DNA from: an uncultured Methanosarcinales archaeon
GTDB lineage: Archaea > Nanobdellota > Nanobdellia > Woesearchaeales > UBA10107
Reading direction: 5' to 3'
Length of the DNA: 64,000 bases
Assembly: GCA_965231065.1 (NCBI GenBank)
Contig: OZ246410.1
Span: 323,046 to 387,045 of the forward strand
Position numbers and translations under genes: made by a program
Notes under the pieces: model-generated
The model's database searches: none
What the model was told of the DNA's origin: nothing
The model's input: the letters and a program-made list of their open reading frames with translations, nothing else
Part shown: in pieces, positions 4,003 to 32,921 of the stretch
How the letters are laid out: the number at the start of each line of letters is the position of its first letter
How positions within the stretch are numbered: position 1 is the first letter of the stretch

Positions 4003-4709
4003 AACCTGAATCCTGCTTTTGTTGCGTCGTTGTAGAACATCTTCACCGTGTCAAGAGAGAAATCTTTCAGATCTTTCCCAAAACTTTCCATCTTCTTGAT
4101 CAAATCATCAGTGACTGTGATGATGTGGCAGCCGCATTCCTCTGCCTGGATGATATTGTAAGCCTCTCGTGAAGATGCCCATAATATCTTTGTATTTGGC
4201 TGATCCTTGAAAAGATCCACTGCATATTTCATGATCGGCACCGGATCCTGTCCTGCGTCAGCGATTCTTCCTGCGAAGACAGAGATGATGACATCATCAA
4301 TTGAACGGATGACTTTCTTTAGACCATCGATCTGCTCTTTGGTAAAGACAGCCGTAACATTCAACTTAACACCTTCTTTCAACAATTCTTCTATGAGTGG
4401 TATCGCAGAATATCCTTTGGTGTTTGTGATAGGAATTTTGACATTGACATATTCTCCCCACGTAGCGATCTTCGCCGCTTGCCGCTTCATCTCAGGGAAT
4501 TCATCTGAGAAGACTTCAAATGAGATCGGTCTGTTCGGAATCGCAGAGACAATATCTTTTGCAAATGCCTCGTAATCCTTGATCCCTGCCTTTGCCATCA
4601 ATGTAGGGTTGGTGGTAAATCCTTTTACCAAGCCTTCTTTGTATCTGTTGACCATATCGACTTTATTCGCTCCGTCTGCGTAGACGTGTATGTTTAGTTT
4701 TTTGTTCAT
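3999..4709 (-). CDS. tal: Transaldolase / fructose-6-phosphate aldolase family protein
   Basis: GFTTNPTL motif and a VNVKIP Schiff-base lysine region, 236 aa. Transaldolase produces sedoheptulose-7-P, the substrate of the adjacent GmhA. Confidence 0.65.
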   Translation of the reverse strand: MNKKLNIHVYADGANKVDMVNRYKEGLVKGFTTNPTLMAKAGIKDYEAFAKDIVSAIPNRPISFEVFSDEFPEMKRQAAKIATWGEYVNVKIPITNTKGYSAIPLIEELLKEGVKLNVTAVFTKEQIDGLKKVIRSIDDVIISVFAGRIADAGQDPVPIMKYAVDLFKDQPNTKILWASSREAYNIIQAEECGCHIITVTDDLIKKMESFGKDLKDFSLDTVKMFYNDATKAGFRL

Positions 4710-4722
4710 GGTGTATTCCTCC

Positions 4723-6039
4723 TCATATGAATAATGATTGTGCTTCTCTCAGATCTTTCTTTGTGTAATCTGGTTTGATGTTCTGGTAATCTTTCTCTTC
4801 TTTCCTGCCTGAACCGCCGCCTGAAGTCAATAAAACGGTTTTTACTCCTGCATTCTTACCGCAGGCGATGTCAGTCGGTGAATCGCCGATCATCCATGAT
4901 TGTGAAGCGTCGACATTGTTTTCCGCAATTGCTTTTAGTAGCAACCCCGGTTTTGGTTTTCTGCAGTCGCAGTCGATCTTGAGTTCTTTTACTTCGCCTG
5001 CGAATCCTTTTTCAGGGTGATGCGGGCAGAGATAGACTTTATCGATAGTCGCTCCTTTTGCTTCTAGGAGATTTTCTAATTTCTTATTGATGGTATCCAT
5101 TTCCTCAAAGGTACAAAATCCTTTCGCAACACAAGGCTGATTTGTGACGACGTACGTCTTGTAACCAGCTTCCCTGATCTTTCTGATGGCTTCTCCAGCA
5201 CCGCTGATCAATTCAAGTTGTTCTGGTTTTATGACGTCTCCGACATTCACATTTATCGTGCCATCCCTATCTAAGAATACGGCCCTGTTTTTCTCGAATA
5301 TATCTGTCTTGCCGGCTATTTCTTTTAGGAATTGTTCATATTTCTCGATCTTTCCTATTTCTCTGAAGAACTCATTGGTGACATAGCCATATATGCCTGA
5401 ATTGCTCTCAATTAATGAAGGAAACAGTTCTTTGGCGAAATCAAACTTTCTGTCTGATGGTATCTTGCTAAAGACGTTTTTGTTGAATGCATAGATTCCT
5501 GAATTATTATATCTTGCTTCCTGTTGATGATTCTGTCGCTGTTCTTCCGTCGGCCTTTCGATGAATGTTTTGACTCTATTTTCAAGATCCAGAGTGATTA
5601 TGCTTGTGCTTTTGTAATTCCGCGGCAACGGTCTCATACAGATTGTTGCCACACCTTTATTCTTTCTATGGGTTGCAAGAAACTTCTCAAAATCCATGTT
5701 GGTAAGGTTATCGCCGTAATATACTATGAAATCCTCGTCGCTGCCGATTAATGGTTCAGCAAGCTTTACGCTTCCGGCTGTGCCCATCAATTCCTTTGTT
5801 TCCTGCACGTATTGGATATTCAATCCGAATTTCTTGCCGTCTTTGAAGTAATCCTTTACTTTGTCAGCAAGATGCGCTACGCAGAAGATAATGTCTTTCA
5901 TATCATGTTTCTTGAAGAACTCAAGCTGATGCTGTATGAGTGGTTTTCCATTGATGTCGATCAAGCATTTAGGTATCTCTTCGGTGATCGGTCGCATCCG
6001 CGTCGCAAGTCCGCCCGCAACAATAACTATCTTTGTCAT
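4723..6039 (-). CDS. Bifunctional D-glycero-alpha-D-manno-heptose-1-phosphate guanylyltransferase (HddC-like, N-terminal) / D,D-heptose-1,7-bisphosphate phosphatase (GmhB-like, C-terminal)
   Basis: The N-terminus GAGGLATRMRPITEEIPKCLIDINGKPLI is a sugar-1-P nucleotidyltransferase signature. The C-terminus FLDRDGTIN is the HAD/GmhB motif I, with the CPHHP...CDCRKPKPG zinc-binding insert typical of GmhB. Confidence 0.7.
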   Translation of the reverse strand: MTKIVIVAGGLATRMRPITEEIPKCLIDINGKPLIQHQLEFFKKHDMKDIIFCVAHLADKVKDYFKDGKKFGLNIQYVQETKELMGTAGSVKLAEPLIGSDEDFIVYYGDNLTNMDFEKFLATHRKNKGVATICMRPLPRNYKSTSIITLDLENRVKTFIERPTEEQRQNHQQEARYNNSGIYAFNKNVFSKIPSDRKFDFAKELFPSLIESNSGIYGYVTNEFFREIGKIEKYEQFLKEIAGKTDIFEKNRAVFLDRDGTINVNVGDVIKPEQLELISGAGEAIRKIREAGYKTYVVTNQPCVAKGFCTFEEMDTINKKLENLLEAKGATIDKVYLCPHHPEKGFAGEVKELKIDCDCRKPKPGLLLKAIAENNVDASQSWMIGDSPTDIACGKNAGVKTVLLTSGGGSGRKEEKDYQNIKPDYTKKDLREAQSLFI

Positions 6040-6675
6040 TTACTTTCGGATCTGGACTCCCTGTTCGTGAGCTTTTGTATGCTGCGCAATTCGCTCCATC
6101 AGTCCAAAGACAATACCATGTGTCAAGACACCATGTAATCCTTCGACATGTGGCGTGGAATCAGCAGGCAATATGATGCCGATATCAGATAGTTTTGCCA
6201 TCGGACCACCGTCAAAGCCTGAGAATCCGATTGATTTTCCGCCGTGGTCTTTTACATATTGTATTGCCTTAAGAATGTTCTGTGACCATGCTCCTGCTTT
6301 CTCTCCGCCAGAACCGCCATGGACACTGAATGCGACAATAAGATCGCCAGGCTGAAAGAATGTTTTCAGTTGTCCTGTGTATAGTTCACTCCAGCCACCA
6401 TCATTGACCCATGCACTGACTAGTGGAATGTTATCTGATAGTGGAATCGCTCGTATTCCTTTGTGATCGCCGACCATGATTGTTTTTGCCAAGTCAGCTG
6501 CGAAATGAGTCGCATTTGATGCGCTGCCGCCGTTGCCGATGACGAATACCTGTCTGTTATTTTTCCAAGCATCGAATAACAATTCAATTGCCTGGTTCAT
6601 CTTATTCTGATCTACTCTGTCCAATGCAGCATGTGCATCGACCATATATTGTTTGATATAATTTTTGTTTGGCAT
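6040..6675 (-). CDS. gmhA: Phosphoheptose isomerase (sedoheptulose-7-P isomerase), SIS domain
   Basis: VFVIGNGGSASNATHFAADL SIS motif. Start trimmed to MPNKNY at 6675, which has a GGAGGG RBS 8 nt upstream; the track's N-terminal extension would overlap HddA. Confidence 0.75.
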   Translation of the reverse strand: MPNKNYIKQYMVDAHAALDRVDQNKMNQAIELLFDAWKNNRQVFVIGNGGSASNATHFAADLAKTIMVGDHKGIRAIPLSDNIPLVSAWVNDGGWSELYTGQLKTFFQPGDLIVAFSVHGGSGGEKAGAWSQNILKAIQYVKDHGGKSIGFSGFDGGPMAKLSDIGIILPADSTPHVEGLHGVLTHGIVFGLMERIAQHTKAHEQGVQIRK

Positions 6676-6688
6676 AGTTTCAACCCTC

Positions 6689-7675
6689 CTAACCATTGAA
6701 TAAGACTTTTGTCCCTTCGAAATCAAATCTGAACGGTGTCTCGACAAGACCTTCCGCTTTCATGGATTCCTTAAATTTCTTCTGATTGTTATCGCAATAG
6801 AATAAGAAGAATCCGCCGCCGCCTGCTCCCATGATTTTTCCGCCGATAGCGCCGTTCTGCAGCGCGGTTCCGTATATTTTATCTATTCGTGAATCTGACA
6901 TCTTGTCAGATAATTTTTTCTTGGTCTCCCAATGAACATTCATCCATTCGCCGAATCTTCTTGCGTTGCTTGATTCCAGTGCTTTCTTGATCTCATTCCC
7001 TATCTCTTTGATCTGATGAAGACCTTCGATACCTTTGCTTGGATCCTTCTGCGCTGTTTCAGTCTGGTTCTTTAGAACTTCTTCGGCGCTTCTTTGTACG
7101 CCGGTGTAGAACATGAAGCAGTTCTGTTCCAGATCGTTCATAGTCTCTTCGTTGATGGTGACGTTGTTCACCATCGTTGAACCGTTCTTTGCGATCGTGA
7201 AATGCTTGATACCACCAAATGCAGCGATATACTGATCTTGCTTACCGCATGATTCCTTCAGAATATCCATCTGGATCTTTGACGCTTCTTCAGCGATAGT
7301 CTGATGAGAAACAAAATCTCTTTTGAAAATATGCAATGCCTGAAGCAAAGCAACTAAGAATGTTCCTGAACTGCCCAATCCTGAATTCGCAGGAACATCG
7401 GCGTATGAAACAATTTCAACACCTTTGTTGATATTTAGCAGTTTTAGTGCTTCCCTGAATAAGGGATGTTTGATATCGTTAACGTTGTCAACTTCTTCTA
7501 CTTGTGAATATTTTACTCTTATCTTATCTAAGAATTTTGATTCATGGAGAACGACATATACGTATTTGTTTATCGCTGCACTGATGAATGAACCCTTATG
7601 CTGAGAATAGTAGTATGGCAGATCAGTTCCGCCTCCTCCAATCGGTATGCGCAATGGCGCTCGTACAACAATCAT
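6689..7675 (-). CDS. hddA: GHMP sugar kinase, D-glycero-D-manno-heptose 7-phosphate kinase (HddA-like)
   Basis: PANSGLGSSGT GHMP ATP-binding motif, 328 aa, inside the heptose gene set. Confidence 0.65.
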   Translation of the reverse strand: MIVVRAPLRIPIGGGGTDLPYYYSQHKGSFISAAINKYVYVVLHESKFLDKIRVKYSQVEEVDNVNDIKHPLFREALKLLNINKGVEIVSYADVPANSGLGSSGTFLVALLQALHIFKRDFVSHQTIAEEASKIQMDILKESCGKQDQYIAAFGGIKHFTIAKNGSTMVNNVTINEETMNDLEQNCFMFYTGVQRSAEEVLKNQTETAQKDPSKGIEGLHQIKEIGNEIKKALESSNARRFGEWMNVHWETKKKLSDKMSDSRIDKIYGTALQNGAIGGKIMGAGGGGFFLFYCDNNQKKFKESMKAEGLVETPFRFDFEGTKVLFNG

Positions 7676-7749: not shown

Positions 7750-8820
7750 TTGGAAGATTTTAAAAACACCAAATTAATACGACTATATATGGAGAAGGGC
7801 AGAGATGAAGAGCGAGTTTGTTTTGTTTTCTGGGATCCTCATTCAATTCATAAAACATGGGCGGAATCTGTTGATGCAAAACCATATTCGTTTGTGCCTT
7901 TCAATTCTAGTGGAATTTCAAAAATAATAAAGTCAAATGGTGTTTTACTACATTTCTTTGCAATATTAAAGTCTCTATTTTTCCTTCCAGAGGCAGACGT
8001 ATACTTGATGGAATCACCAATGATGATCACTGCCCTATTTTTTAAAACATTGTTTTCAAATAAAAAAAAGGTATTTGCAATAGTTTCAGACCCTTTCTTT
8101 TTTGTATTCAATGATTTTAATTCACCAACTAGGTATATTTTCAAACTCTTAATTAAGAGAATTGATGGGTATTTTGCAACCAGTGATATGATGGCCAAAT
8201 ATATAAGTAAAATTGTTAGAGATCCAAAATATGAGATTACAACTCCTTACATTGCTCCCTCTTATCTAAAAATCAATGCAGATTTATCCAGCAAAAATGC
8301 TTGTTTTATTGGACCGCACTTAAACGAACAGAAGGGTGTTGATCTACTTATTGATTCTTTCTCTGTTCTTCCAAATCAGGAACAAAGACAACTTTATCTG
8401 ATTGGCGATGCCCAACAGAAAATTATCGAGAAAAAACAAAGTGAAAAAGTCAACATCCGAATTACGGGTCGGGTTCCAGATCCGGGAATTTATTTGCAGA
8501 AGTGTGGTTTATATTTAAATCTTGCAAGGCTTGAGCCAGCTGGCAGTAATATTTTGGAAGCGATGGCTGCAGGTATTCCTCCAATTGTGTCAGATATGTG
8601 TGGTCTTGCTCCTGAAGTAAGAAGAATAGACCGTAGGTTAATTGTTTCGGCAACAAATAAAAAACAGATAATTAAAGCGGTTGATTGGCTAGAAAACACA
8701 GCTGATCGGAATTTATTAAGTAAAAAGGCAAAGGCAATTGCTAGGTCGTTTACTAAAGAAAATAGCATAGTTGATTTCAGAAATAAATTCAATAAGTTGA
8801 ATCGTGCAGTTTCTATTTAA
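7750..8820 (+). CDS. GT4-family (GT-B) glycosyltransferase
   Basis: The C-terminal EPAGSNILEAMAAGIPPIVSD segment is the GT4 E-x7-E region. The gene is strongly AT-richer than its neighbours and lies on the opposite strand. Confidence 0.7.
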   Translation: MEDFKNTKLIRLYMEKGRDEERVCFVFWDPHSIHKTWAESVDAKPYSFVPFNSSGISKIIKSNGVLLHFFAILKSLFFLPEADVYLMESPMMITALFFKTLFSNKKKVFAIVSDPFFFVFNDFNSPTRYIFKLLIKRIDGYFATSDMMAKYISKIVRDPKYEITTPYIAPSYLKINADLSSKNACFIGPHLNEQKGVDLLIDSFSVLPNQEQRQLYLIGDAQQKIIEKKQSEKVNIRITGRVPDPGIYLQKCGLYLNLARLEPAGSNILEAMAAGIPPIVSDMCGLAPEVRRIDRRLIVSATNKKQIIKAVDWLENTADRNLLSKKAKAIARSFTKENSIVDFRNKFNKLNRAVSI

Positions 8821-9346
8821 CCAATGTGACTTCAAGTTCTGTCGCAGGTGTCAATGTCCTCATGAACGTATCTTCATACAGTGGGAAGAACAATTTAATG
8901 AATAGTTGTGAGACCCATGTCAACGGAAAGTATTTGTAGAATCCGCCGAAGTGAACATCAACTGTAACTTTCCTGAATACAGGCGTCCACCAATCCAATT
9001 CAGACTTCTTATCTAAAATAGTAAATGAAGATATCGCGAAATAATGTTTGTGCTGCCACGAAGAGAATGCCAGGCTATGACCGAAATAAGGAACCTTTAT
9101 TGTTAATTTTCCACCCGGTTTCAATATTCGGTGTAGTTCAGTCAAGCACTTATCAGGATCGTTCAGATGCTCGATGACGTGGCTGCAATAGATCTCATCG
9201 GCGTAATTACTCTTAAACTTGTACGGATACTTATTCAGATCCTGTTTCACATCAATGCCTTTGAAGTTAAACACATCGACATTGATGTATCCGGCCATAG
9301 GCCTCGGTCCGCAGCCAAAATTGACCTTGATTTTTGCCATATCCAT
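8813..9346 (-). CDS. Class I SAM-dependent methyltransferase
   Basis: VNFGCGPRP motif I and ILKPGGKL motif post-II; 177 aa. Confidence 0.7.
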   Translation of the reverse strand: MDMAKIKVNFGCGPRPMAGYINVDVFNFKGIDVKQDLNKYPYKFKSNYADEIYCSHVIEHLNDPDKCLTELHRILKPGGKLTIKVPYFGHSLAFSSWQHKHYFAISSFTILDKKSELDWWTPVFRKVTVDVHFGGFYKYFPLTWVSQLFIKLFFPLYEDTFMRTLTPATELEVTLVK

Positions 9347-9409: not shown

Positions 9410-10129
9410 ATGAGGCTTTTCTATATGCTATTTGACCGCATCGCAAAGATATACGCTTGGACTCCAAAAAGCAACAAGCTTCTTGATGTCGGCTGTGACC
9501 GTGGAGACGTAACCAAAGAATTCGTAAGAAAAGCAAAGGATGTCTATGGTCTTGATAGCAACGCAGAAGCTATTGCATACGGAAAAAAACATTACAAAGG
9601 AATCAGACTCAGTGTCGCCAAAGGAGAGAAAATCCCTTTCAAATCAAATGTATTTGATACTGTCGTGATGGGTGATGTGCTGGAGCATGTCATCAATGAA
9701 AAAAAGACAATCCAGGAAGTCCACAGAGTCATGAAAGACAATGGCACATTGGTTCTTTCAGTACCTCACAAGGGATTGTTCAGATTCATTGACACGTTCA
9801 ATATGAAATTCTATTTCCCAAAGTTATACAAATGGTGGAAAGGAAAGAACTACACTCCGAACAATTACATAGTCCAGCCGTGGCATAGACATTATTCATT
9901 GTCTGACTTGAAAAGATTATTCGGTAAGAATTTCGAAGTGATCAGAGTTCACAGAGGAGGATTGCTTGCATATCCGTTGTGCTGGTTATTTGGCGATATG
10001 ACCAAAGATATGTTCGGCAGCAAGATGCATTGGTTCAGAATGTTGTTGGTATGGATCGGTCACATTGATTATAACATTCCGTTTGGACCATTCGGCTATT
10101 CTATTTTAGTCATAGCAAAGAAGAAGTAA
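9410..10129 (+). CDS. Class I SAM-dependent methyltransferase
   Basis: LLDVGCDRGD motif I and VMKDNGTLVLSVP; 239 aa. Confidence 0.7.
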   Translation: MRLFYMLFDRIAKIYAWTPKSNKLLDVGCDRGDVTKEFVRKAKDVYGLDSNAEAIAYGKKHYKGIRLSVAKGEKIPFKSNVFDTVVMGDVLEHVINEKKTIQEVHRVMKDNGTLVLSVPHKGLFRFIDTFNMKFYFPKLYKWWKGKNYTPNNYIVQPWHRHYSLSDLKRLFGKNFEVIRVHRGGLLAYPLCWLFGDMTKDMFGSKMHWFRMLLVWIGHIDYNIPFGPFGYSILVIAKKK

Positions 10130-10894
10130 TCATTTGCTGTGCTTCATCTCATAGAACTTCATGTATTTCATAAACTGATAGAAGCCACTGCATGATGCGC
10201 AATAGAGGCCGACATAACCGTGTTTCCACAGTCCTTTTCCGAAATACCATAGAAGAAACTCGAATGGAACCCGTGCAAATGCATTAAACAGAATAGAAAT
10301 ATCTGATGCATGCGGATTCTGCTTATACAGATTACGAGCTTCTAATGTCGTGTACTTATTATATCGTGCGAAGTAATCACTGACGTCCTTGAAGCTGTAA
10401 TGATGCAATAGCCCATTCAACGTCGCTGTCTCGCCCTTGATGTAGACTTTCTCATGGATGCTGTGTTTGAATGATCCTTTTGAACGGCGATACAATCGTA
10501 GTATGTTTGTTATTGTGATCGGCGTTTCCATGAATACGTAATCCAGTCTTCTGATATAGAATCCATTGTATTTAGTACCATTCTCGATTATGTTTTTAAT
10601 TTCCTTATACAAATCCGGAGAGACGATCTCATCTGCGTCTAAACTGAAGATCCAGTCGTGTTTTGCCTTTGCGATTGCGATGTTCTTCAGCTCTGCTCCG
10701 CTGATCTTGTTATTTGGATCAGGAAGGTTGTAGAATCGTGAAGTATATTTTCTGCAGATCTGCTTTGTCTTATCCGTTGAATCGCCGTCAAGAATGACAA
10801 TATCGACACTCAGTCCTTTGACTGCTTCGAGGCATCTACCTATGATGTGCTCGACATTCTTCGTTAATATTACGATCGATAGTTTTTCAGTCAT
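10130..10894 (-). CDS. GT2-family glycosyltransferase (GT-A fold)
   Basis: LSIVILTKN...ILDGDSTD...SLDADE (DxD) motifs; 254 aa; paralog of the next gene. Confidence 0.75.
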   Translation of the reverse strand: MTEKLSIVILTKNVEHIIGRCLEAVKGLSVDIVILDGDSTDKTKQICRKYTSRFYNLPDPNNKISGAELKNIAIAKAKHDWIFSLDADEIVSPDLYKEIKNIIENGTKYNGFYIRRLDYVFMETPITITNILRLYRRSKGSFKHSIHEKVYIKGETATLNGLLHHYSFKDVSDYFARYNKYTTLEARNLYKQNPHASDISILFNAFARVPFEFLLWYFGKGLWKHGYVGLYCASCSGFYQFMKYMKFYEMKHSK

Positions 10895-11655
10895 TTTCGT
10901 TGTATCAGTTCAAACTCCTTACATTTAGTGTATAATAACCAGCGATACCAAATATCATTCGCGGTCAGCACCAGGCCATAGAACCCGTAGATCCACGCGC
11001 CTTTGATCATGCGTATCAGGAAGTAGCCAATGGATGTAGCGAGCATCTTCCAAAAAGGATAGTGATCTCCCCGCTGAACCATGAGCTTCGCATCATTGGT
11101 CGTATAGTTGTTTGTCTTGACAAACAGATGATGCAGTCCCCGATATCCACCGAAATGGATGATATCCTTTTTTAATCTTCCTATCTCTCCTTTGATCTCG
11201 AGGAATCCATGGACTCCTTGTAGATTGAAGCGTGCCTTATTCTTCTTAAATAGACGGAGCTGATAATCAGGATACCATCCGCCAAAACGGAGCCATGTAT
11301 TGTTCACGAAGTTCTTGCGCGGTATCTTGAATGCGTTATTGTTTGTATCTTTTGAAAGTAATGTGTCTATCTCTTGCTTTAATTCTTTAGATACCTCTTC
11401 ATCCGCATCCAGATATAATATCCATTCAGATGTGCATTTATCAGTACCGATCTGCTTGTTCTCATTAAGATTCAGCTTATTCGATACGGTAAAGACCTTG
11501 TTGGTGTATTTCTTTGCGATATGTTTTGTCCTATCGGTGCTTGCGGCATCAATCACAATTATCTCATCAGCCCAGCCTTTCACACTTTTCAGTGTTCTTT
11601 CGATGTAGTCTTCTTCATTATGTGCCAGAATACTGACTGAGATATTCGGCCTCAT
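10891..11655 (-). CDS. GT2-family glycosyltransferase (GT-A fold)
   Basis: ISVSILAHNEE...VIDAASTD...YLDADEE; 254 aa; ATGA overlap with flanking genes. Confidence 0.75.
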   Translation of the reverse strand: MRPNISVSILAHNEEDYIERTLKSVKGWADEIIVIDAASTDRTKHIAKKYTNKVFTVSNKLNLNENKQIGTDKCTSEWILYLDADEEVSKELKQEIDTLLSKDTNNNAFKIPRKNFVNNTWLRFGGWYPDYQLRLFKKNKARFNLQGVHGFLEIKGEIGRLKKDIIHFGGYRGLHHLFVKTNNYTTNDAKLMVQRGDHYPFWKMLATSIGYFLIRMIKGAWIYGFYGLVLTANDIWYRWLLYTKCKEFELIQRK

Positions 11656-12704
11656 AAAAATTTCCTCAACGCAGGAATCACCCGTTCTGCCTTTAATTTT
11701 TTGAGATTTCCCTGTATCGTAACTGATTTTTTATCATTATACCCCCACACCCGAGAATCTTCTGGTCCGAATAGGGTTATCATTCTTGCCTTTACAGCCC
11801 GTGCGATGTGTGCAGGACCAGTATCGGGACCGAGGAACAAATCACATTTCTGTATTATCACTGCAAGCTGTTTCAATGTTGTCTTGCCACAGAGATTTAC
11901 GTAGTTTGTATGTTTCATGTTATGGATGATATCTTCAGCAAGATCCTGTTCAGATCTGCTGCCGGTAAAGATAACGGTGTGGTGATGTTCATTCGCATAA
12001 TCAGCAAGTTTTGCCCATTCTGTATTATTCCACAGCTTTGCTCTTCTTCCAGCACCAGGATTCAATACGAGCGCTTTCTTGATGTTGAATTTTCTGAATG
12101 TCGAGTCTGCAAACGCAGAATCTTGTTTCGAGATAGCGAGTTCCATCTCCTTATTCATCGTATTGGCACCGATCGCACGAGCTAGATCAAGATTTCGTTC
12201 AATGGTGTGTTTCAGATGTTCGTCATATTTAACAGTCTTATTCAGTAAGAATCGGAATCCGCGCAGTCCATAACCGATTCGATACCCACCAATCAATGAT
12301 GCGAACAGAATATTCCTCGGATCATCATGCATATCGATGATGATGTCATATTTTTCCTTCCTGAGTTTAGGGATTATCTTAAACATCTCTGTCCATGAGC
12401 CATTCTTTGCGAGCCACGGTGTATTCAGCACAATGGGATGCGCATCTTTATTCCCATCCAACACTTCTTTCGAGAATGATCTCACCAAGACATCGATTTC
12501 TGCGTCCGGAAACCGTTCTTTCAACGCTCTGAATGTCGGTGTCGTCAGCAATACATCACCGATGTGTTCGACCCGTATCACAAGAATCTTTTTGATATGT
12601 TTTGGCATCCGTTTCAGTTTTGTCCAGAAAAAGAGAATACTGCCGAGTATGTCAACTGCACCTAAGAACGGCTTCAGCCACCCTGCGACTTTGTACTTAA
12701 GCAT
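11652..12704 (-). CDS. GT9-family glycosyltransferase (LPS-type heptosyltransferase homolog)
   Basis: KKILVIRVEHIGDVLLTTPTFRALKERFPDAEIDVLV is the RfaF/WaaC-type N-terminal motif. The C-terminal GPDTGPAHIA is the GT9 donor-binding motif. Confidence 0.75.
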   Translation of the reverse strand: MLKYKVAGWLKPFLGAVDILGSILFFWTKLKRMPKHIKKILVIRVEHIGDVLLTTPTFRALKERFPDAEIDVLVRSFSKEVLDGNKDAHPIVLNTPWLAKNGSWTEMFKIIPKLRKEKYDIIIDMHDDPRNILFASLIGGYRIGYGLRGFRFLLNKTVKYDEHLKHTIERNLDLARAIGANTMNKEMELAISKQDSAFADSTFRKFNIKKALVLNPGAGRRAKLWNNTEWAKLADYANEHHHTVIFTGSRSEQDLAEDIIHNMKHTNYVNLCGKTTLKQLAVIIQKCDLFLGPDTGPAHIARAVKARMITLFGPEDSRVWGYNDKKSVTIQGNLKKLKAERVIPALRKFL

Positions 12705-14169
12705 TCTGTTCCTTTATGACGACAGTTCCTGATGAGAAGACTGGCTTGTAATTGGCGATTTTCTGTTTCGCAGCAGGATCCAACGCAGAATAATCCTGGA
12801 TGAGTATGTATCGGGTGGTGATCGTTTCAGGCATCTCTTGTTCAAGCACGAAGTTATTCAGTTTTGAATACACTAAAAGCCACTTGAAGTCTCGGAATGA
12901 GGAGTCGCCCTTGTAGTTCTTCACATAGGTGATCGGTATCGACGGGTCTTTTGCCAGGAACTGAGCTACCTGCATCTCGTCCTGAGTGATCGCAGGTTCT
13001 AATTTTCCATAGAGGAAGCCGAGCTCTCCGACCTGGAACAGCAAAGTGAAGATCAAGATCAGCGAAAACAAAAATCTCGTGTGTTTATTTTTTAAACCAT
13101 TCACGATCATGACCGATGCAGGCAACGCAAGCAGTATGAAGAAGAACGGATAGAACCGATAGACAAAGTATCGTGCAAAGACACCTACAGGGATAACAAA
13201 TAAGTTGACAGCGACAATCACGCTTGCAGCGACAAAAAGACTAATGATGTCCCACTCCTGTTTCCAGAGCAGGTAAAGAAGTCCAATTGCTGCTAACGTA
13301 ACAATGAACGGTCCATCAACGACGAGGAAGTATCCCCATGCCTTCGGATAGCCGTCTCCCATCTTGAGGAGTGCGGCAATGATACTCGAAAGGAATCCTT
13401 GTCTGCCTGATGCGGCGAATAAATATAGTTTAGTAAGCACTGCAGCAAGTATGAGCATCGGCAGCAAAAATAGCGATGATTTTCCGAACAGATCCTTCTT
13501 CTCTTTCCAGACCGCTTCGATCTTTGGCAGTTTCAACTGCACTTTCTCCTTTGCGGAAATACCGATTACCAATCCGATCTCAAGCAATGTCAGGAACGCG
13601 GCTATTGGTGTGTATGTCAGATACGTCAATACTGTCAATGCGAGAGCACCGCAGAGATAACTATTTCTTCCTGTTCTGAAATATTTAAGCGTGAAGTACA
13701 GTGAAGGTGCAATCAGACAGAATGAAACAAAATAAGGATAATGACCAGTAAGATGTGAGAAGTATGCTCTGAAGTTTAAAGCAGAGAATAGTGAACCAAG
13801 CAATGCGACATTTCTATCTTTTGTTAATTCAAAGAACAACAAGTACACAAAGAATGTCGATAGCAGGAAAAATACTGCGGTATACGCGCCGTTGATCCAG
13901 AATACATCATGGCCAACATATTTCAATAACAATCCGAATGTAACGACTGCGAATGGTGGATAATCAGAGACATGCTGCTCCAATGATCCTGGTTTGTTAT
14001 ATGCAGGATTCTCCGCAGAGATGCCGCCTTCAGCATAGGTCCTTGCCAAAGCGTAGTATGTCGCACCATCTGTCTGTGTTACTGGTGCATTAAATACAAA
14101 AGCAGGATACAACGCAAGAACTGCATTGATGACTAGGATGATGACGAGCGCCCAATTGCTGTTTTTCAT
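12697..14169 (-). CDS. Polytopic membrane protein, probable GT-C glycosyltransferase (PMT_2/ArnT-like)
   Basis: 490 aa, at least 10 predicted TM helices, with an early loop motif TDGATYYALARTYAE (a DE/xRYAE-like GT-C loop) and a soluble C-terminal domain. Confidence 0.45.
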   Translation of the reverse strand: MKNSNWALVIILVINAVLALYPAFVFNAPVTQTDGATYYALARTYAEGGISAENPAYNKPGSLEQHVSDYPPFAVVTFGLLLKYVGHDVFWINGAYTAVFFLLSTFFVYLLFFELTKDRNVALLGSLFSALNFRAYFSHLTGHYPYFVSFCLIAPSLYFTLKYFRTGRNSYLCGALALTVLTYLTYTPIAAFLTLLEIGLVIGISAKEKVQLKLPKIEAVWKEKKDLFGKSSLFLLPMLILAAVLTKLYLFAASGRQGFLSSIIAALLKMGDGYPKAWGYFLVVDGPFIVTLAAIGLLYLLWKQEWDIISLFVAASVIVAVNLFVIPVGVFARYFVYRFYPFFFILLALPASVMIVNGLKNKHTRFLFSLILIFTLLFQVGELGFLYGKLEPAITQDEMQVAQFLAKDPSIPITYVKNYKGDSSFRDFKWLLVYSKLNNFVLEQEMPETITTRYILIQDYSALDPAAKQKIANYKPVFSSGTVVIKEQNA

Positions 14170-14219
14170 GGAATATTGCAGTAAAAGTATGTTTAAAAAT
14201 GTTTCTTTGCTATGAATGC

Positions 14220-15272
14220 TTATAACAGGCTTTTAACGGCTTTTTCGACTTCCTGGACAGATATGCGCTTCATCCACTTGCCTTTTTTGGAAGCAGATGG
14301 CTGCTTGCCGAACAATTCGTACTCTTCTTCATAGATGTCTTGGTCATGCCAGATCGCGATGCTCTCATCATGCAGCGGCGCTTTTCGTTTTGGATTCGTC
14401 GGTCCGAATAAACTGACGATCTTTTTATTGACCGCTGATGCGATATGCATCGGGCCTGAGTCATGCGTCACGATGACTGCACATCTCTTCATAATCGCTG
14501 CTGATTGCTTGATGTTCGCCGCTCCAGCACTATTGATCACATTCTTGTTCTTGATGAATCGTATGACATCCTCATTCAATTGTCTATCATTCGGTCCGCC
14601 GATCAAGATGATCTTGTGATTGTTTGATAATCTTTGGATCAATTCAATGTATTTCTCTGTCTGGAATTTTCTGATAGCGCCTGATTCTCCGGGATTTTCT
14701 CCGCCGCCGCCGAGAAGCATACCGATTACTTTTCCAGTGAGTTTATTTTTCCTGAAAAATGAATCTGCGAACGAAAGATCTTTCTTTGGCACTGTAAGAT
14801 CAAGCTGTGTATCTTTCGTATCTGGTTTTATGCTGATTGCTTCAAGCAATGATAAGTAATAAATGATTTCATGCTGTGCCTGTTGATATATGATCGAATC
14901 AGTATGGTATTTTCCCTCTCTATTTCTATTGAAGCCTATCCTGGTTGGTATATTGCATAATTTCATGAACAAACCAAAGATCCAGTGCTTATCTAAGATG
15001 AAGGCAGCATCGAATTTTTCTTTTTTGATCTTATTTCGCAGCGAAAGGACCTTGAATATATTTTTCCTGAAAAACATATTCTGGTCGAATCGTTCGATAC
15101 GGTTGATATTCTTATTTCCCTCGAGAACTGATGCGGAATAGGTGCCGACATAATAGACAATCTGGGATTTCGGAAACTGTTTTCGTAACTGTCTGACAAA
15201 TGGCGTCGTCATGAGTACATCACCGATGGCGCCAGTCTTGAATATGAGGATCTTTCGTGGATTTTCCATCAA
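14220..15272 (-). CDS. GT9-family glycosyltransferase (heptosyltransferase homolog)
   Basis: KILIFKTGAIGDVLMTTPFVRQLRKQFPKSQIVYYV and THDSGPMHIA. Confidence 0.75.
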   Translation of the reverse strand: MMENPRKILIFKTGAIGDVLMTTPFVRQLRKQFPKSQIVYYVGTYSASVLEGNKNINRIERFDQNMFFRKNIFKVLSLRNKIKKEKFDAAFILDKHWIFGLFMKLCNIPTRIGFNRNREGKYHTDSIIYQQAQHEIIYYLSLLEAISIKPDTKDTQLDLTVPKKDLSFADSFFRKNKLTGKVIGMLLGGGGENPGESGAIRKFQTEKYIELIQRLSNNHKIILIGGPNDRQLNEDVIRFIKNKNVINSAGAANIKQSAAIMKRCAVIVTHDSGPMHIASAVNKKIVSLFGPTNPKRKAPLHDESIAIWHDQDIYEEEYELFGKQPSASKKGKWMKRISVQEVEKAVKSLL

Positions 15273-16387
15273 CCTTCCCTCTTCAATTTCTCGATTGTTT
15301 GTAATACATCATCCACCGAGATCGCATTCATGCATTCTCGCTGCTCTTTCGTGAGGTGTTTCGGCACCAGTTCCCGTTTTGTATTATCAAGGAAGGGACA
15401 GCCATGGACCGGTTTCCATAAGGAAATATTCCCTTTTCCATACGGTCCCCATAATACAGGTGTATTCGGACCGAACAATCCTATTGTCTTTGTCCCCATC
15501 GCCGCAGACACATGCATCAGTCCTGAATCATTGCTGATGACGATGTCGCAGTTCCGAATCAGTTCAGCTGACTGCGGTAAGGTAAATAGGCCAGCGGCAT
15601 CGATGCATTCATGGTTCATTCCCTGCTGTATCTTCTCGACAACTCTTCTGTTGCTTTTCGAATCGATGAGTATGACTTTCGTATGATGGCGTTCCAATAA
15701 GGTATCGGCAAGCTCCGCGAATCGTTCGATCGGCCACATCCTATACTTGACAGACTCAGCGACGCCCGGAGCGATACCGACGACGAGATTATTTTTTGTG
15801 ACTTTCTTTTCCTTGAGATAGTGCGCAACTATGTTTTTATCTTTTTGTGAAATAGAAAGCGGCATCAACGCATCGACATCGTACGTACTTCCCACTTTTC
15901 TCGCAAAATCAAGATAATTCTGAACCATGTGCTGTTTCTTGCTGAAATGGACTGTTTCATGATATGTATTCTTCCGTATGCCATGATCAAAACCGATCCT
16001 GAACTTAGAAGTAAGGAATGCGATTGCTGCAGAAATGCTCAGTGCCGGTTCTGCGTCGATGCAGAGATCATAGCTTCGGAACCGTTTCAGTACATTAAAC
16101 AAACCAAAGTCAATGATCTGATGTACGTCGTGCTGTCCTTCAAATACGACTCTGTTTCTCGGATGCGCGAGCACATCGATCTGAGCAAGAGGGAATTCTC
16201 GTTTCAGCGCTTTGATCGTCGGTAACAATACGATTGAATCTCCCAGCGCCCAGAACTTGATGACAAGGATCTTTTTGATCTTATTCTTCTTGAATGCTGT
16301 CTTTTTCTTTAATTTTCCGAATACATAATCAAGCGGACTAAAGAAATACGCATCTACGATCCGCTGTAGCTGGATTGCAAGGGACAT
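15269..16387 (-). CDS. GT9-family glycosyltransferase (heptosyltransferase homolog)
   Basis: KILVIKFWALGDSIVLLPTIKALKREFPLAQIDVLA and SNDSGLMHVS. Confidence 0.75.
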   Translation of the reverse strand: MSLAIQLQRIVDAYFFSPLDYVFGKLKKKTAFKKNKIKKILVIKFWALGDSIVLLPTIKALKREFPLAQIDVLAHPRNRVVFEGQHDVHQIIDFGLFNVLKRFRSYDLCIDAEPALSISAAIAFLTSKFRIGFDHGIRKNTYHETVHFSKKQHMVQNYLDFARKVGSTYDVDALMPLSISQKDKNIVAHYLKEKKVTKNNLVVGIAPGVAESVKYRMWPIERFAELADTLLERHHTKVILIDSKSNRRVVEKIQQGMNHECIDAAGLFTLPQSAELIRNCDIVISNDSGLMHVSAAMGTKTIGLFGPNTPVLWGPYGKGNISLWKPVHGCPFLDNTKRELVPKHLTKEQRECMNAISVDDVLQTIEKLKREG

Positions 16388-16389
16388 GT

Positions 16390-16725
16390 TTATTTTCTTT
16401 TAACCCGCTGTATTGCAGTCTCTCGCACAACCTTTGTGATGGTCTGTTGCATCTCGTCCATGATTACATACAGTCTGAAGTTCAGATAGAACAGCAATAT
16501 GACTGCGACATACAGTATAAGATCGGCCGGTCTTCCGATACCAAGGAATGTCGAGACGTATCCTAGTGAAGTCGGCGTTATGATGGCAAATATTGCAAAG
16601 ACCCAGACGATAGTCCAGAACAAGACCTCGAATTTCTTGATAGTCCCTTCTTTGAATCTCAGATATACTCTGCTCAGTGCAAACAGCACGAACACGATTA
16701 ACAATATTTGTATTGGTTCTACCAT
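16390..16725 (-). CDS. Small 3-4 TM membrane protein (DUF2304-like accessory of Dol-P-sugar GT2 systems)
   Basis: 111 aa, hydrophobic helices with a basic C-terminal tail; overlaps the upstream GT2 stop. Confidence 0.5.
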   Translation of the reverse strand: MVEPIQILLIVFVLFALSRVYLRFKEGTIKKFEVLFWTIVWVFAIFAIITPTSLGYVSTFLGIGRPADLILYVAVILLFYLNFRLYVIMDEMQQTITKVVRETAIQRVKRK

Positions 16726-17411
16726 TATTGCATCAGTCTCCGAAGCATAGTCTTGATTGCGATCTCGACACCTTTCAGCAGATGGAATCTGCCGTGGTGC
16801 GTATGTTCTTTTGAGTACTCAGTATATTTAATGGTTACGGACACTTCCTGATATCGAACCTTCTTCTTGAAGACCTCGATCAGGATCTCAGAAGCATGCT
16901 CCATCTTGTCTTGTTTTATCTCAATCTTCTCGGCTGCTTTCCGTGACATTGCGCGGAAGCCGCATTGCGAATCAGTCAATCTGACGCCATAGAACATCCG
17001 TAAGAACAGTCTCCCGAGCACTAAGATGAACCGTTTTGACGGCGGTATGTTGGACGTCTTTCCGAGGAATCGCGATCCCATAGTAATATCGGCTTTTCCC
17101 TTGACAATCGGCGCTATCATCGCCGGAATGTCCTCCGCCTGCATCTGTCCGTCTGCATCGAAATGGACAATGATGTCAGCGCCATGACGCAATGCATATT
17201 CGTTGCCGGTGACCAATGAAGCTCCCTGGCCACGATTAACGATGTGAGTTAATACGGTCGCTCCTCTCTGCCGTGCGATCTTTTCAGTATTGTCCTTCGA
17301 ATTATCATTGACGACGATGATGTTGTGATATCCGTGATGTTTCAGCGTATCAACAACTCTGCCGATTGATTTCTCTTCGTCATGCGCCGGAATTACGATG
17401 AATATCTTCAT
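16725..17411 (-). CDS. GT2 polyprenyl-phosphate (dolichyl-P) sugar synthase, DPM1/AglD/ArnC-like
   Basis: MKIFIVIPAHDEE...VVNDNSKDNT...HFDADGQ...QCGFRA motifs. Start trimmed to M29 at 17411, giving an ATGA overlap with the upstream stop. Confidence 0.75.
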   Translation of the reverse strand: MKIFIVIPAHDEEKSIGRVVDTLKHHGYHNIIVVNDNSKDNTEKIARQRGATVLTHIVNRGQGASLVTGNEYALRHGADIIVHFDADGQMQAEDIPAMIAPIVKGKADITMGSRFLGKTSNIPPSKRFILVLGRLFLRMFYGVRLTDSQCGFRAMSRKAAEKIEIKQDKMEHASEILIEVFKKKVRYQEVSVTIKYTEYSKEHTHHGRFHLLKGVEIAIKTMLRRLMQ

Positions 17412-18130
17412 TTTGCGATCACCCGTCCTAATAATCTGAGGTAGCCGATAATTGTCTTCAGTTTCTTCATCTTGCTCTTGCCGATGACTCTCCACTTGAA
17501 GATGATCGGCACTTCATACATGCTGAATCCTGCTTTCTTCGCACAGATAAGAAGTTCCGGGTAATATTCGAAATTTCTGAATACAGTCTTGTTCTTGATC
17601 TTATCTATGACTTTTCGTTTGTATAATCTGTATCCTGAGGTCTTGTCTTTGACCCACAATCCAGTAAGGATCGAAAGTATCTTGTTCATCCACTTGCTCA
17701 GGGTCACTTTCCACAGCGGCATGCCTTCCATCTTGCCGCCTTTGATATACCGTGAACCGATGATGATATCCTTATCTGTCTTTTCCATCGCAGCGATGAA
17801 CATCGGCAATTCTTCCGGTTGGTGATTCAAATCAGCATCCAATGTCAATACATGTGTCGCATCTCTTGAAACTGCATCAAAACCAGCTCTGAATGCAGGA
17901 CCGACACCGATCGGCCCGGGGTAATACAACGTCCTGATCTTGCTCATGCCTTTCTTCTTCATCTGTATTAAACTATTATATCCGCTCTTCTCTTTGGTGC
18001 CCTGCAATACATAAAGCAGTTCAAAGTCAATGTTCAGTTTCTTGAAGACCCTATAGAACCGTTCGGCAAGTTTCTCTACATTCCCTGCTTCATCGTAAGC
18101 AGGCATCACGACTGAGATTTTCATCTTCAT
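17408..18130 (-). CDS. GT2 polyprenyl-phosphate sugar synthase-like
   Basis: MKMKISVVMPAYDEAGN...TLDADLNHQPEE; start trimmed to M16 at 18130, with an ATGA overlap. Confidence 0.7.
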   Translation of the reverse strand: MKMKISVVMPAYDEAGNVEKLAERFYRVFKKLNIDFELLYVLQGTKEKSGYNSLIQMKKKGMSKIRTLYYPGPIGVGPAFRAGFDAVSRDATHVLTLDADLNHQPEELPMFIAAMEKTDKDIIIGSRYIKGGKMEGMPLWKVTLSKWMNKILSILTGLWVKDKTSGYRLYKRKVIDKIKNKTVFRNFEYYPELLICAKKAGFSMYEVPIIFKWRVIGKSKMKKLKTIIGYLRLLGRVIAK

Positions 18131-18468
18131 ACGACAAAAGTCACCCCGATGATGATGAGCAGTATGCCGAGCCATTTGTATTTATTCATCTTTTCATTGA
18201 GATACTTCATCGATAATAGGTTGACCCAGACATAATTCAACGAGGCGATCGGATACAGCACGGTTAATTCGTGGCCTCGCAATGCGACGACGAAGATGAT
18301 CGATGACAGTCCGTAGAAGAACAGACCGGTCAGTAGTATGTAATTCGTAAGAACATGCACTAGTTTTTTATGTGTTCGCATAGAGCCGAACTTCAGTCCC
18401 ATCTGTCCGAGTCCGGCGCAGATCGAAGAGATCACTGCAAGCGCTATGGAGATAATTTGGGTATTCAT
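18127..18468 (-). CDS. Small 4-TM SMR/EamA-like membrane protein (ArnE/ArnF- or GtrA-like flippase subunit candidate)
   Basis: About 113 aa from MNTQIISIAL; four hydrophobic helices; ALRGHELTVLYPI motif. Start trimmed to 18468, overlapping the upstream stop. Confidence 0.55.
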   Translation of the reverse strand: MNTQIISIALAVISSICAGLGQMGLKFGSMRTHKKLVHVLTNYILLTGLFFYGLSSIIFVVALRGHELTVLYPIASLNYVWVNLLSMKYLNEKMNKYKWLGILLIIIGVTFVV

Positions 18469-18836
18469 CGCTGTCTCCCTTTGCCGACCAAGGCGACACC
18501 GGCGATGATGATCAGGACACCGAGCCATTTATGCAGTGTCATGGAATCAGTATGGAAAAATATCGGCGATAAGATGCCTACCCAGATGAAACTGGTGGCC
18601 ATAACCGGATAGATCACTGTCAACTCTCCATGGCGCAGGGCCTTTATCATGAACAATAATCCGATGCCGTATGAGAATAAGCCAAGATACAGGAAGTGAT
18701 TGAACAGTAGTGATGCGACATCAGTCAGCTTGTTCGCAGCGAATTTGAAGAAGATCTGACCGATGGAACCGAAGAATGCAGCGATTGCTATGAGGGTGAT
18801 GCCAAGCACTGTTGTCTTTTCCCTTTTTTGTTTCAT
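18465..18836 (-). CDS. Small 4-TM SMR/EamA-like membrane protein, paralog of the previous gene (second flippase subunit candidate)
   Basis: 123 aa; ALRHGELTVIYPVMATSFIWVGIL; TGATG overlap with the upstream GT2. Confidence 0.55.
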   Translation of the reverse strand: MKQKREKTTVLGITLIAIAAFFGSIGQIFFKFAANKLTDVASLLFNHFLYLGLFSYGIGLLFMIKALRHGELTVIYPVMATSFIWVGILSPIFFHTDSMTLHKWLGVLIIIAGVALVGKGRQR

Positions 18837-29342: not shown

Positions 29343-29353
29343 GGTAACAAACA

Positions 29354-31099: not shown

Positions 31100-31112
31100 T
31101 AGGTAAACTACA

Positions 31113-32774: not shown

Positions 32775-32832
32775 TACTAAAATAACCGTTAAATCACAAC
32801 AGATAGTTACTACTCACGAATAAGAAAATAAA

Positions 32833-32847
32833 CGAAAGGTTTATATA
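32833..32847 (+). promoter_or_regulatory. Consensus BRE/TATA promoter (CGAAAGGTTTATATA), copy 2
   Basis: TTGGGGG element about 30 nt downstream of the TATA, a GGAGG RBS, and the ATG at 32922. Confidence 0.6.
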
Positions 32848-32921
32848 CAAGCTATCGGTACAGAGTGTAACTTTGGGGGTTTTTAGACGAACACATTCAT
32901 ATTGTTTGGAGGAACATAACA

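Follow-up and report, generated by a model that had tools for sequence, protein, structure and literature searches.

The 64,000-nucleotide stretch of archaeal DNA analyzed here (positions 323,046 to 387,045 of contig OZ246410.1, assembly GCA_965231065.1; hereafter the window) encodes three family 9 glycosyltransferases (GT9s), which we call GT9a, GT9b and GT9c (Table 1). We find that these genes are no oddity: they form a recurrent archaeal module present in many metagenome-assembled genomes (MAGs) of DPANN archaea and in a cultured Methanocaldococcus. The reading that we favor, at roughly even odds (a probability of about 0.5), is that the three enzymes use ADP-heptose to heptosylate a glycan of the AglB pathway that is linked to polyprenol phosphate, and that the product of a separate, HddA-type heptose operon in the window feeds the neighboring GT4 and GT2 enzymes. 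An initial annotation, made from the letters of the window, had pictured three GT9s as an archaeal peculiarity coupled to a GDP-heptose pathway; that picture is only partly supported by the comparison with other archaea, where the cassette is common and its usual partners are ADP-heptose genes.

Three GT9 enzymes of a recurrent archaeal cassette

All three open reading frames (ORFs) score far above the 22-bit gathering score of the Pfam model PF01075 (Glyco_transf_9), and carry the GT9 motif both at the N-terminus (KILVIRVEHIGDVL, KILIFKTGAIGDVL and KILVIKFWALGDSI, the second of which departs slightly from the pattern first given for the trio) and at the C-terminus (GPDTGPAHIA, THDSGPMHIA and SNDSGLMHVS). 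Their pairwise identity is 29-30%, and GT9b probably starts at an ATG at position 15269, one codon inside the listed TTG, which gives the 349 residues reported by the gene caller. The GT-B fold was checked with the AlphaFold (AF2) model of GT9a, which has a mean predicted local distance difference test score (pLDDT) of 96.4, GT9b and GT9c being judged from sequence. A Foldseek search with this model returned as top matches a Veillonella GT9 (3tov), WaaF (1psw) and WaaC (2h1h/6dfe), with E values of 1e-22 to 1e-17 and template modeling (TM) scores of 0.7-0.8. Subunits of chloroplast NDH-PSI supercomplexes (9grx_1, 7wff_a and 7f9o_6) rank right behind the bacterial GT9s in the same search (TM about 0.7, E down to 2e-15).

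Residues were mapped onto the donor contacts of WaaC (bioRxiv 10.1101/2021.06.16.448588). In the alignment, D50, K223, E257, D294-T-G and H299 of GT9a correspond to WaaC D13, K192, E222, D261-T-G and H266, and the catalytic aspartate, the D-[ST]-G motif and the histidine are present in all three GT9s. WaaC position 192 is occupied by lysine in GT9a and by arginine in GT9b and GT9c, and position 222, the ribose-binding glutamate, by glutamate, aspartate and asparagine in GT9a, GT9b and GT9c, respectively. The three proteins are genuine members of CAZy family GT9 by sequence and active-site residues and, for GT9a, by fold; their assignment to GT9, as first proposed, is borne out by the Pfam scores, the motifs and the fold matches, and a GT4 or GT1 identity is ruled out by the PF01075 scores together with the Foldseek matches of GT9a. 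The best NCBIfam matches are lipopolysaccharide (LPS) heptosyltransferases II and III, all under their equivalog cut-offs (149.6 versus 170.2 bits for HepIII; 119.4 versus 134.6 and 114.3 versus 134.6 bits for HepII). Judged by sequence against the equivalog models for WaaC, WaaF and WaaQ (TIGR02193, TIGR02195 and TIGR02201), the trio are not orthologues of any of these enzymes.

GT9a and its orthologues share a conserved N-terminal extension of about 35 residues (residues 1-38) that is absent from WaaC, WaaF and GT9b, and GT9c has an extension of similar length. In the orthogroup alignment D18 and G21 of this segment are invariant and Y4, P12 and F25 nearly so, and the AF2 model is helical at residues 8-24 and 26-30. 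The extension may serve in membrane association or in the binding of a partner.

A scan of one genome per species recovered 80 loci encoding relatives of GT9a. The archaeal GT9 ORFs fall into three orthogroups that match GT9a, GT9b and GT9c, each with both DPANN and Methanocaldococcus sequences, and their bit scores to their own orthogroup are about twice those to the other two. In a neighbor-joining tree, computed without support values, every orthogroup forms its own clade and all three lie outside Escherichia coli WaaC and WaaF; the phylogenetic comparison that the initial annotation had suggested hence gives each window GT9 an archaeal clade of its own, with the E. coli enzymes on the outside. 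The orthologous a, b and c genes of the relatives are 35-58% identical to those of the window. Among them, GT9b shares 44-48% identity with the genes next after HldA in three loci (L024, L025 and L030), and GT9c shares 39-47% with those next after DUF2304 in three others (L020, L075 and L088).

The gene order of the relatives places the trio next to ADP-heptose genes. The cassette reads GT2-DUF2304-GT9c-GmhA-HldC-HldA-GT9b-membrane protein-…-GT9a in L085/L086, AglB-GT2-DUF2304-GT9c-GmhA-HldA-GT9b-… in L088 (GCA_974447225.1), AglB-GT2-DUF2304-GT9c-HldA-GT9b-…-GT9a in L092 (GCA_975468935.1), and HldC-HldA-HAD phosphatase-GT9c-GT9b-SDR-GT9a-GT4-GT2 (SDR, short-chain dehydrogenase/reductase) in the complete genome of Methanocaldococcus indicus SL43 (L030; NZ_CP186926.1, 4434-15212). 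A GT2-DUF2304 pair opens the cassette in all relatives, with synteny in L085, L088, L090 and L092, and AglB also adjoins it in L088, L090, L092 and L011. The PfkB and/or cytidylyltransferase motifs of HldE stand beside GT9 genes in 10 archaeal loci, and the HldE or HldA/HldC proteins of the relatives tested reach or approach the NCBIfam cut-offs of the RfaE domains. Since orthologues of all three GT9s adjoin or surround HldA, HldC or HldE in other archaea (GmhA lies beside most of them, not all), the ancestral and usual donor context of these enzymes is that of ADP-heptose. The window retains the order GT2-DUF2304-GT9c-GT9b-GT-C-GT9a, with the embedded ADP-heptose genes gone. Public records call the genes 'glycosyltransferase family 9 protein', 'ADP-heptose:LPS heptosyltransferase' or similar LPS names. 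The M. indicus locus, which belongs to a cultured and tractable organism for work on archaeal heptosylation, continues with another glycosyltransferase and a sulfotransferase and adjoins an IS240-type transposase.

The host is a DPANN archaeon, Woesearchaeota-like. The closest named homologues of GT9a come from Woesearchaeota/Nanoarchaeota, and the same window encodes an archaeal TopA (761 bits), NreA, a PACE-CTERM-type S-layer protein and AglB/STT3. Bacterial contamination of the contig is ruled out by the archaeal TopA, NreA and AglB and by a G+C content that is even along the window, so that the original placement of the GT9s in an archaeon holds. Because this monoderm archaeal host has neither an outer membrane nor LPS, the acceptor of the GT9s cannot be Kdo2-lipid A.

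Two heptose routes and the donor of the GT9 enzymes

An HddA-type heptose operon lies 4 kb downstream of GT9a, with a GT4 and two methyltransferases in between (Table 1). The best solved relatives of its GHMP kinase are WcbL (4usk/4usm), 3k85 and Campylobacter jejuni HddA (4n3o), at E values of 1e-43 to 1e-38, and its best NCBIfam model is HddA (NF049969), at 170 bits against a 600-bit cut-off. GmhA reaches 90.8 bits against a cut-off of 209 on TIGR00441, and the phosphatase half of the fusion protein scores 151 against 178 and 139.3 against 149.6 bits on GmhB models, lies above the cut-offs of HAD-IIIA domain models and matches the solved structures 3l8e and 2gmw at E 4e-30. For the NTP_transferase domain, HddC (NF049965) gives 97.9 bits against a 300-bit cut-off and mannose-1-phosphate guanylyltransferase a better 138 bits; the best solved relative is an annotated UTP-glucose-1-phosphate uridylyltransferase (138.7 bits), HddC itself (5xhw/6jq8) giving 72 bits. 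At the family level, an HddA-type route to an alpha-anomeric heptose is well supported by these matches. Its product is putatively GDP-heptose by analogy. The earlier description of a GDP-D,D-heptose pathway as the only nucleotide-heptose route in the window is thus right as to the HddA-type enzymes (GHMP kinase, GmhA and NTP_transferase/GmhB), but the 'G' of GDP is no more than putative, given the low scores of HddC and a closest solved structure annotated as a uridylyltransferase. The description also left out the GalE-like SDR encoded inside the operon.

The HddA-like kinase is 89% identical to that of its nearest relative (L002, 13364-14330), whereas the neighboring genes of the same two loci are 57-76% identical (GT9a 57%, GT-C 59%, transaldolase 61%, HddC 70%, GmhA 76%). 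As far as the sequences go, this points to unusually strong constraint on the kinase or to a recent exchange of the gene.

No HldE, HldA or HldC was found in the window by a motif scan and a tblastn search with eight archaeal queries, and HldD has no equivalog-level match there: on TIGR02197 the GalE-like SDR scores 53.6 bits against 274.6, and a second SDR (54113-55978) reaches 40 bits on the HldD model. A database search did reveal an HldA-type heptose-7-phosphate kinase outside the window, a protein of 313 residues (P0142) that is 61% identical to the archaeal HldA query from L003 (E 7e-111), with intact GGAAN and DVTGAGD motifs and a TIGR02198 score of 321.8 bits, next to 317-352 bits for its archaeal relatives. 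It lies on a 773,982-bp contig (NCBI and Logan run SRR8931244) whose attributes match those of all window proteins checked, between OB-fold and TctA genes and adjoining LonB, far from glycan genes (L082, 4777-5718; L083, 3573-4514). The genome of the window therefore appears to keep an intact HldA-type kinase at another place on its 774-kb contig. A search with the woesearchaeal HldC of L003 gave, in its 120 top matches (identities down to about 50%), none from this contig; this negative is weak, because only the 120 best matches are visible and because L088 and L092, which have HldA in the cassette and no adjacent HldC, likewise yielded none. As judged from homology, the ADP route would be present in part, with GmhA, GmhB and HldA, its last step unlocated and the route as a whole neither complete nor excluded. 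The statement in the initial annotation that HldE and HldD are missing thus applies to the window but not to the genome as far as HldA is concerned. Homologues of hldE or hldD elsewhere in the genome, which it had named as what would make the donor conventional, came to light by half: the HldA-type P0142 was recovered, HldC was not among the 120 best relatives.

The nearest relatives of GT9a lend some support to the idea of a changed donor. In the closest three GT9a loci (the window, L084 of GCA_964572885.1 and L091, whose GT9a proteins are 56-58% identical), a GHMP kinase, GmhA and an NTP_transferase lie within 5-9 kb of GT9a, and neither HldA nor HldC was found near GT9a in the loci examined. 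The HddA-type operon is found again in L084 and, in part, in L091, and these nearest relatives are the only ones to share it. L084 keeps GT9a and the GT-C protein without GT9b and GT9c. The GT2s after GT9a are conserved in both relatives, as is the trio of a GT4 and two methyltransferases between GT9a and HddA, giving all three loci the common order GT9a-GT2-(GT2)-methyltransferase-methyltransferase-GT4-…-HddA; owing to this common order, the three co-occurrences are probably one inherited cluster and not independent events. In L090, whose GT9a is 52% identical, an NTP_transferase follows right after DUF2304.

The donor-binding residues show no corresponding change. At the donor-contact columns the window GT9s carry the same residues as the orthologues that lie beside HldA/HldC, and no column sets the three HddA-context GT9a proteins apart by a common residue that the otherwise conserved GT9a orthologues lack. 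Under relaxed criteria nine positions separate the HddA-context from the other GT9a proteins, none of them at a WaaC donor contact, and specificity-determining positions for the HddA-context proteins were accordingly rejected both at conserved sites and at donor contacts. The inspection of the donor pocket suggested at the outset could be carried through, in that the residues map onto WaaC, and it gave no sign of an altered donor site. WaaC reads the N6 of adenine through a backbone carbonyl (bioRxiv 10.1101/2021.06.16.448588), so that the base preference is not readable from side chains.

From the membership of the GT9s in their family and fold, their orthology and synteny, the conserved catalytic and donor-site residues and the HldA gene on a contig with the attributes of the window, we infer a transferred sugar, an acceptor, a donor nucleotide and a division of labor between the two heptose routes. 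The GT9s would be GT-B enzymes, either soluble or peripherally bound on the cytoplasmic side of the membrane, and would add heptose step by step to an oligosaccharide linked to polyprenol (dolichol) phosphate, in a manner similar to that of WaaC, WaaF and WaaQ on Kdo2-lipid A. On the outside, the GT2-DUF2304 pair, the other GT2s, the small EamA pair and the GT-C proteins (12697-14169, 19530-21575 and 24062-25726) would add sugars from polyprenol-phosphate sugars, and AglB would then move the glycan onto surface proteins. The ADP-heptose genes would be dispersed in this genome, with HldA lying outside the cassette on the same contig, GmhA and GmhB of the local operon serving both routes and HldC not located. 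That HldA is retained suggests that a beta-heptose phosphate is needed, since a reduced genome would be expected to lose an unneeded HldA. The local operon would make an alpha-linked nucleoside diphosphate (NDP)-heptose (GDP by analogy), possibly epimerized by the GalE-like SDR and methylated by the methyltransferases. Its most natural users would be the adjacent GT4 and GT2 enzymes, because GT4 and GT2 families conventionally take alpha-linked NDP-sugars. A lipid- or protein-linked glycan containing heptose, the product first put forward for this locus, is a sensible one, and heptose is known from one other archaeal N-glycan, that of Thermoplasma acidophilum (PMC11407970).

Several observations weigh against this assignment. 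The co-occurrence of HddA-type genes with GT9a in the window, L084 and L091, together with the NTP_transferase of L090, is what a switch of donor would look like. P0142 scores slightly under the TIGR02198 cut-off of 345 bits, as do some of its relatives; HldC was found neither in the window nor among the 120 best relatives, and a complete ADP-heptose route is thus not demonstrated. The tree lacks support values, and for archaeal GT9s neither an acceptor nor a product is known.

If the GT9s had indeed turned to the alpha-linked NDP-heptose of the HddA-type operon, these inverting enzymes would produce beta-heptosides. Such a switch is attractive in that the operon is the only complete nucleotide-heptose route seen and accompanies GT9a in all three members of the nearest subclade, of which L084 lacks GT9b and GT9c and keeps the GT-C protein; HldC went undetected, and with adenine read through the backbone a change of base need not show in side chains. 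We nevertheless hold it to be unlikely. The HddA route makes the alpha anomer and GT9 enzymes use a beta-linked donor, so that the opposite anomer, and not just another base, would have to be accepted, a much larger change that would call for an inverted sugar-binding geometry in an unchanged pocket. All three orthologues are embedded with HldA/HldC in other archaea, the genome retains HldA, and no clade-specific substitution falls at a conserved or donor-contact position. The conventional alpha-NDP-sugar users, GT4 and GT2, are encoded between GT9a and HddA in every case, and the three co-occurrences, sharing their gene order, probably count as one inherited cluster. A literature search on archaeal GT9, archaeal ADP-heptose and GT9s using GDP-heptose returned nothing relevant. 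The altered, GDP-heptose-using GT9 subfamily of the initial annotation, conceivable in itself, is accordingly not supported, given the ADP-heptose context of the orthologues, the retained HldA and the unchanged donor site; on the question of GDP versus ADP, the conventional donor is the more likely.

In a hybrid route, HldA (P0142) and GmhB would work with an NTP_transferase-type enzyme that stands in for HldC, giving a non-canonical NDP-beta-heptose for an unchanged GT9 pocket. Such a route would explain why HldA is kept without a detectable HldC, in L088 and L092 as well, and why L090 has an NTP_transferase at the cassette position usual for heptose genes, and it agrees with the unchanged heptose-contact residues. 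The local NTP_transferase, however, is fused to GmhB in an operon with an alpha-specific GHMP kinase, the non-detection of HldC among 120 best matches is a weak argument, and an NTP_transferase-fold enzyme is not known to us to act on beta-heptose-1-phosphate; this scenario seems to us improbable. The same degree of disbelief attaches to the idea that the GT9s transfer no heptose here, either using another nucleotide sugar or decaying after loss of the donor pathway. It could draw on scores that are all under the WaaC, WaaF and WaaQ equivalog cut-offs, on the ADP-heptose genes missing from the cassette and on the asparagine of GT9c at the ribose-binding position, but it has to contend with intact, translationally coupled reading frames, with the conservation of the catalytic aspartate, basic residue, D-[ST]-G and histidine, with the consistent link of these genes to heptose genes in relatives and with two heptose-related kinases kept in the genome. 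That the lineage of the window, L084 and L091 has uncoupled GT9 from ADP-beta-heptose and feeds it through a GHMP-kinase/NTP-transferase route, be it with GDP-alpha-heptose or with a non-canonical NDP-beta-heptose, is doubtful; if true, it would be the first GT9 with a non-ADP donor, and in an archaeal N-glycosylation pathway.

The AglB-headed gene block

The GT9 genes belong to a block of 17 minus-strand genes, from AglB to the distal GT2 (10130-10894), which overlap or are separated by gaps of at most 50 nt and run in the order AglB, PMT_2 (GT-C), GT2, membrane protein, PTPS_related/DUF6541 membrane protein, GT2, two EamA, GT2, GT2, DUF2304, GT9c, GT9b, GT-C, GT9a, GT2, GT2 (Table 1). An STT3/AglB with the WWDxG motif is therefore encoded in the same co-directional block as the GT9s.

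Table 1. Genes of the window around the GT9 trio, in order of position
Feature	Position	Strand	Basis and remarks
Methyltransferase	2350-3024	-	Pfam
GalE-like SDR	3025-4002	-	best solved relatives are archaeal GalE-like enzymes
Transaldolase	3999-4709	-	above equivalog cut-off
NTP_transferase + HAD (GmhB) fusion	4723-6039	-	Pfam/NCBIfam
SIS/GmhA	6040-6747	-	Pfam/NCBIfam
GHMP kinase (HddA-like)	6689-7675	-	PDB relatives WcbL, 3k85, HddA
GT4	7750-8820	+	Pfam
S-adenosylmethionine (SAM) methyltransferase	8813-9346	-	Pfam
SAM methyltransferase	9410-10129	+	Pfam
Two GT2s directly downstream of GT9a	10130-11655	-	4-nt overlaps; PF00535 E 1e-21 and 9e-18
GT9a, inverting GT-B GT9 glycosyltransferase, putative heptosyltransferase	11652-12704	-	350 aa; PF01075 E 1.3e-43, 149.5 bits
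Predicted GT-C fold membrane glycosyltransferase, rare family	12697-14169	-	490 aa; 8-nt overlap with GT9a; AF2 and Foldseek
GT9b, GT9 glycosyltransferase	14220-15272	-	350 aa; PF01075 E 1e-28, 100.7 bits
GT9c, GT9 glycosyltransferase	15269-16387	-	372 aa; PF01075 E 1e-39, 136.8 bits
DUF2304 small membrane protein	16390-16725	-	PF10066 E 4e-24
GT2	16725-17495	-	PF00535 E 3e-22
GT2	17408-18175	-	Pfam
Two small EamA proteins	18127-18528, 18465-18836	-	133 and 123 aa; Pfam
GT2	18836-19528	-	Pfam
PTPS_related/DUF6541/YfhO-like membrane protein	19530-21575	-	Pfam
Membrane protein, family unassigned	21509-23389	-	
GT2	23379-24065	-	Pfam
PMT_2 (GT-C)	24062-25726	-	Pfam
AglB, STT3 oligosaccharyltransferase, first gene of the block	25708-28449	-	913 aa; PF02516 E 1.5e-31, PF21436; WWDFG at residue 597

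The membrane protein encoded between GT9a and GT9b has no Pfam or NCBIfam match and belongs to a family of 33 representative clusters among 1.84 billion proteins. Its AlphaFold model, built on an alignment of 23 sequences, has a pLDDT of 89.8 and matches STT3/PglB/AglB, ArnT, AftA, DPY19 and PMT in Foldseek (probability 1.00, E about 1e-7, query-normalized TM score (TMq) 0.5-0.58), and the protein is therefore predicted to be a GT-C fold glycosyltransferase, which agrees with its first description. The aspartate of its first external loop (D34, in QTDG) is invariant across the 23 family members, as are P22, P29, Q32, N93, G94, R134, G142, W278, A393 and W430. At the same place, relatives encode a syntenic membrane protein of 541-554 residues. 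The similarity of the 541-residue proteins to the GT-C protein is marginal (E 2e-4 over the N-terminal 130 residues), and their homology is suggested by it.

Upstream in the block, the GT2-DUF2304 pair, further GT2s and paired small EamA proteins (16390-19528) resemble ArnC with ArnE/ArnF or Gtr-type modules for polyprenol-phosphate sugars. Considered along with the three or four GT-C-like membrane proteins of the block, this module suggests extensive extracytoplasmic decoration of the glycan. The AglB proteins of L088 (1-3246) and L092 (2348-5677), of 1109-1127 residues, are fused to an FKBP_C peptidyl-prolyl isomerase domain that the AglB of the window does not have; a separate cyclophilin gene lies in the window at 42153-42716.

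Directly upstream of AglB, on the opposite strand, four genes (28641-34217) encode secreted or surface proteins, among them a PT-repeat protein, He_PIG/PKD Ig-domain proteins and a PACE-CTERM-like S-layer candidate that is anchored by a C-terminal transmembrane segment. Farther on, an Ig-domain protein (39975-42110) has the highest density of N-X-S/T sites, 1.55 per 100 residues. These surface proteins are plausible targets of glycosylation; the density of N-glycosylation sequons in the adjacent surface proteins was tried as evidence and proved uninformative. Elsewhere in the window, ORF 54113-55978 encodes 621 residues with two fused SDR (epimerase/reductase-like) domains, and ORF 59013-60842 a short, 609-residue alanine-tRNA ligase of the PRK01584 type. 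Scanning the window for Rfam families and tRNAs returned two tRNAs and nothing else.

Relation to known systems and significance

The closest characterized counterparts of the trio are the GT9 enzymes of the LPS inner core, WaaC, WaaF and WaaQ (2H1H, 6DFE, 1PSW), along with the uncharacterized Veillonella protein 3TOV. They share with the window enzymes the PF01075 domain and, as far as the GT9a model goes, the GT-B fold, and WaaC-type enzymes have the same catalytic aspartate in an N-terminal G-D motif and the same donor site of Lys/Arg, Glu/Asp, D-[ST]-G and His. The logic proposed here would also be the same, with three paralogues working one after the other on a lipid-anchored acceptor, like the succession of WaaC, WaaF and WaaQ. 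However, the window GT9s are only 18-22% identical to the LPS-core enzymes and fall into separate archaeal clades, GT9a and GT9c differ from WaaC and WaaF by their N-terminal extensions, and the genes share an AglB (N-glycosylation) operon with those of GT-C enzymes. Nearer relatives are the tri-GT9 cassettes of Woesearchaeota/Nanoarchaeia MAGs and of M. indicus SL43, which have orthologous a, b and c genes, the same gene order and frequent adjacency to AglB. In these, GmhA, HldC and/or HldA (or a fused HldE) lie within the cassette or flank it; the window lacks all of them at that place and has an HddA-type operon downstream instead.

Bacterial HddA-type heptose systems comprise the same four enzyme families and send their product to a surface glycan, not to the LPS core. 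In the window, by contrast, the nucleotidyltransferase and phosphatase are fused, a transaldolase is part of the operon and the host is archaeal; the NCBIfam scores of the heptose enzymes are under the equivalog cut-offs and the base is putative. To our knowledge, the bacterial systems are not paired with GT9 transferases. The remainder of the block recalls ArnC-ArnE/F-ArnT, GtrA/B/V and archaeal AglB clusters, with a candidate GT2 polyprenol-phosphate-sugar synthase, two small EamA-like proteins, a GT-C enzyme and an STT3/AglB with WWDxG in one operon. It differs from them in having several GT-C proteins, one of a rare family without a Pfam model, and in its coupling to GT9, a pairing not described in the literature searched. 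The other pertinent item of that literature concerns GDP-heptose candidates for the S-layer O-glycans of anammox bacteria.

GT9 enzymes and ADP-heptose count as hallmarks of the LPS core of Gram-negative bacteria, and ADP-heptose also acts as a signal in innate immunity. In our analysis, the GT9 trio, usually with its own ADP-heptose genes, emerges as a recurrent module of AglB-linked glycan clusters in DPANN archaea and Methanocaldococcus. The lineage of the window is a natural experiment, with the same transferases beside an HddA-type pathway, and could reveal how the donor specificity of GT9 enzymes is set. If the conventional donor holds, the trio would represent an uncharacterized, though unsurprising, case of a known family reaching a new acceptor in a domain of life that is new to it. 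The cassette predicts heptosylated surface glycans and ADP-heptose in archaea, both testable in a cultivable methanogen, and this general module, open to experiment in Methanocaldococcus, is a more valuable lead than the possible twist in the donor.

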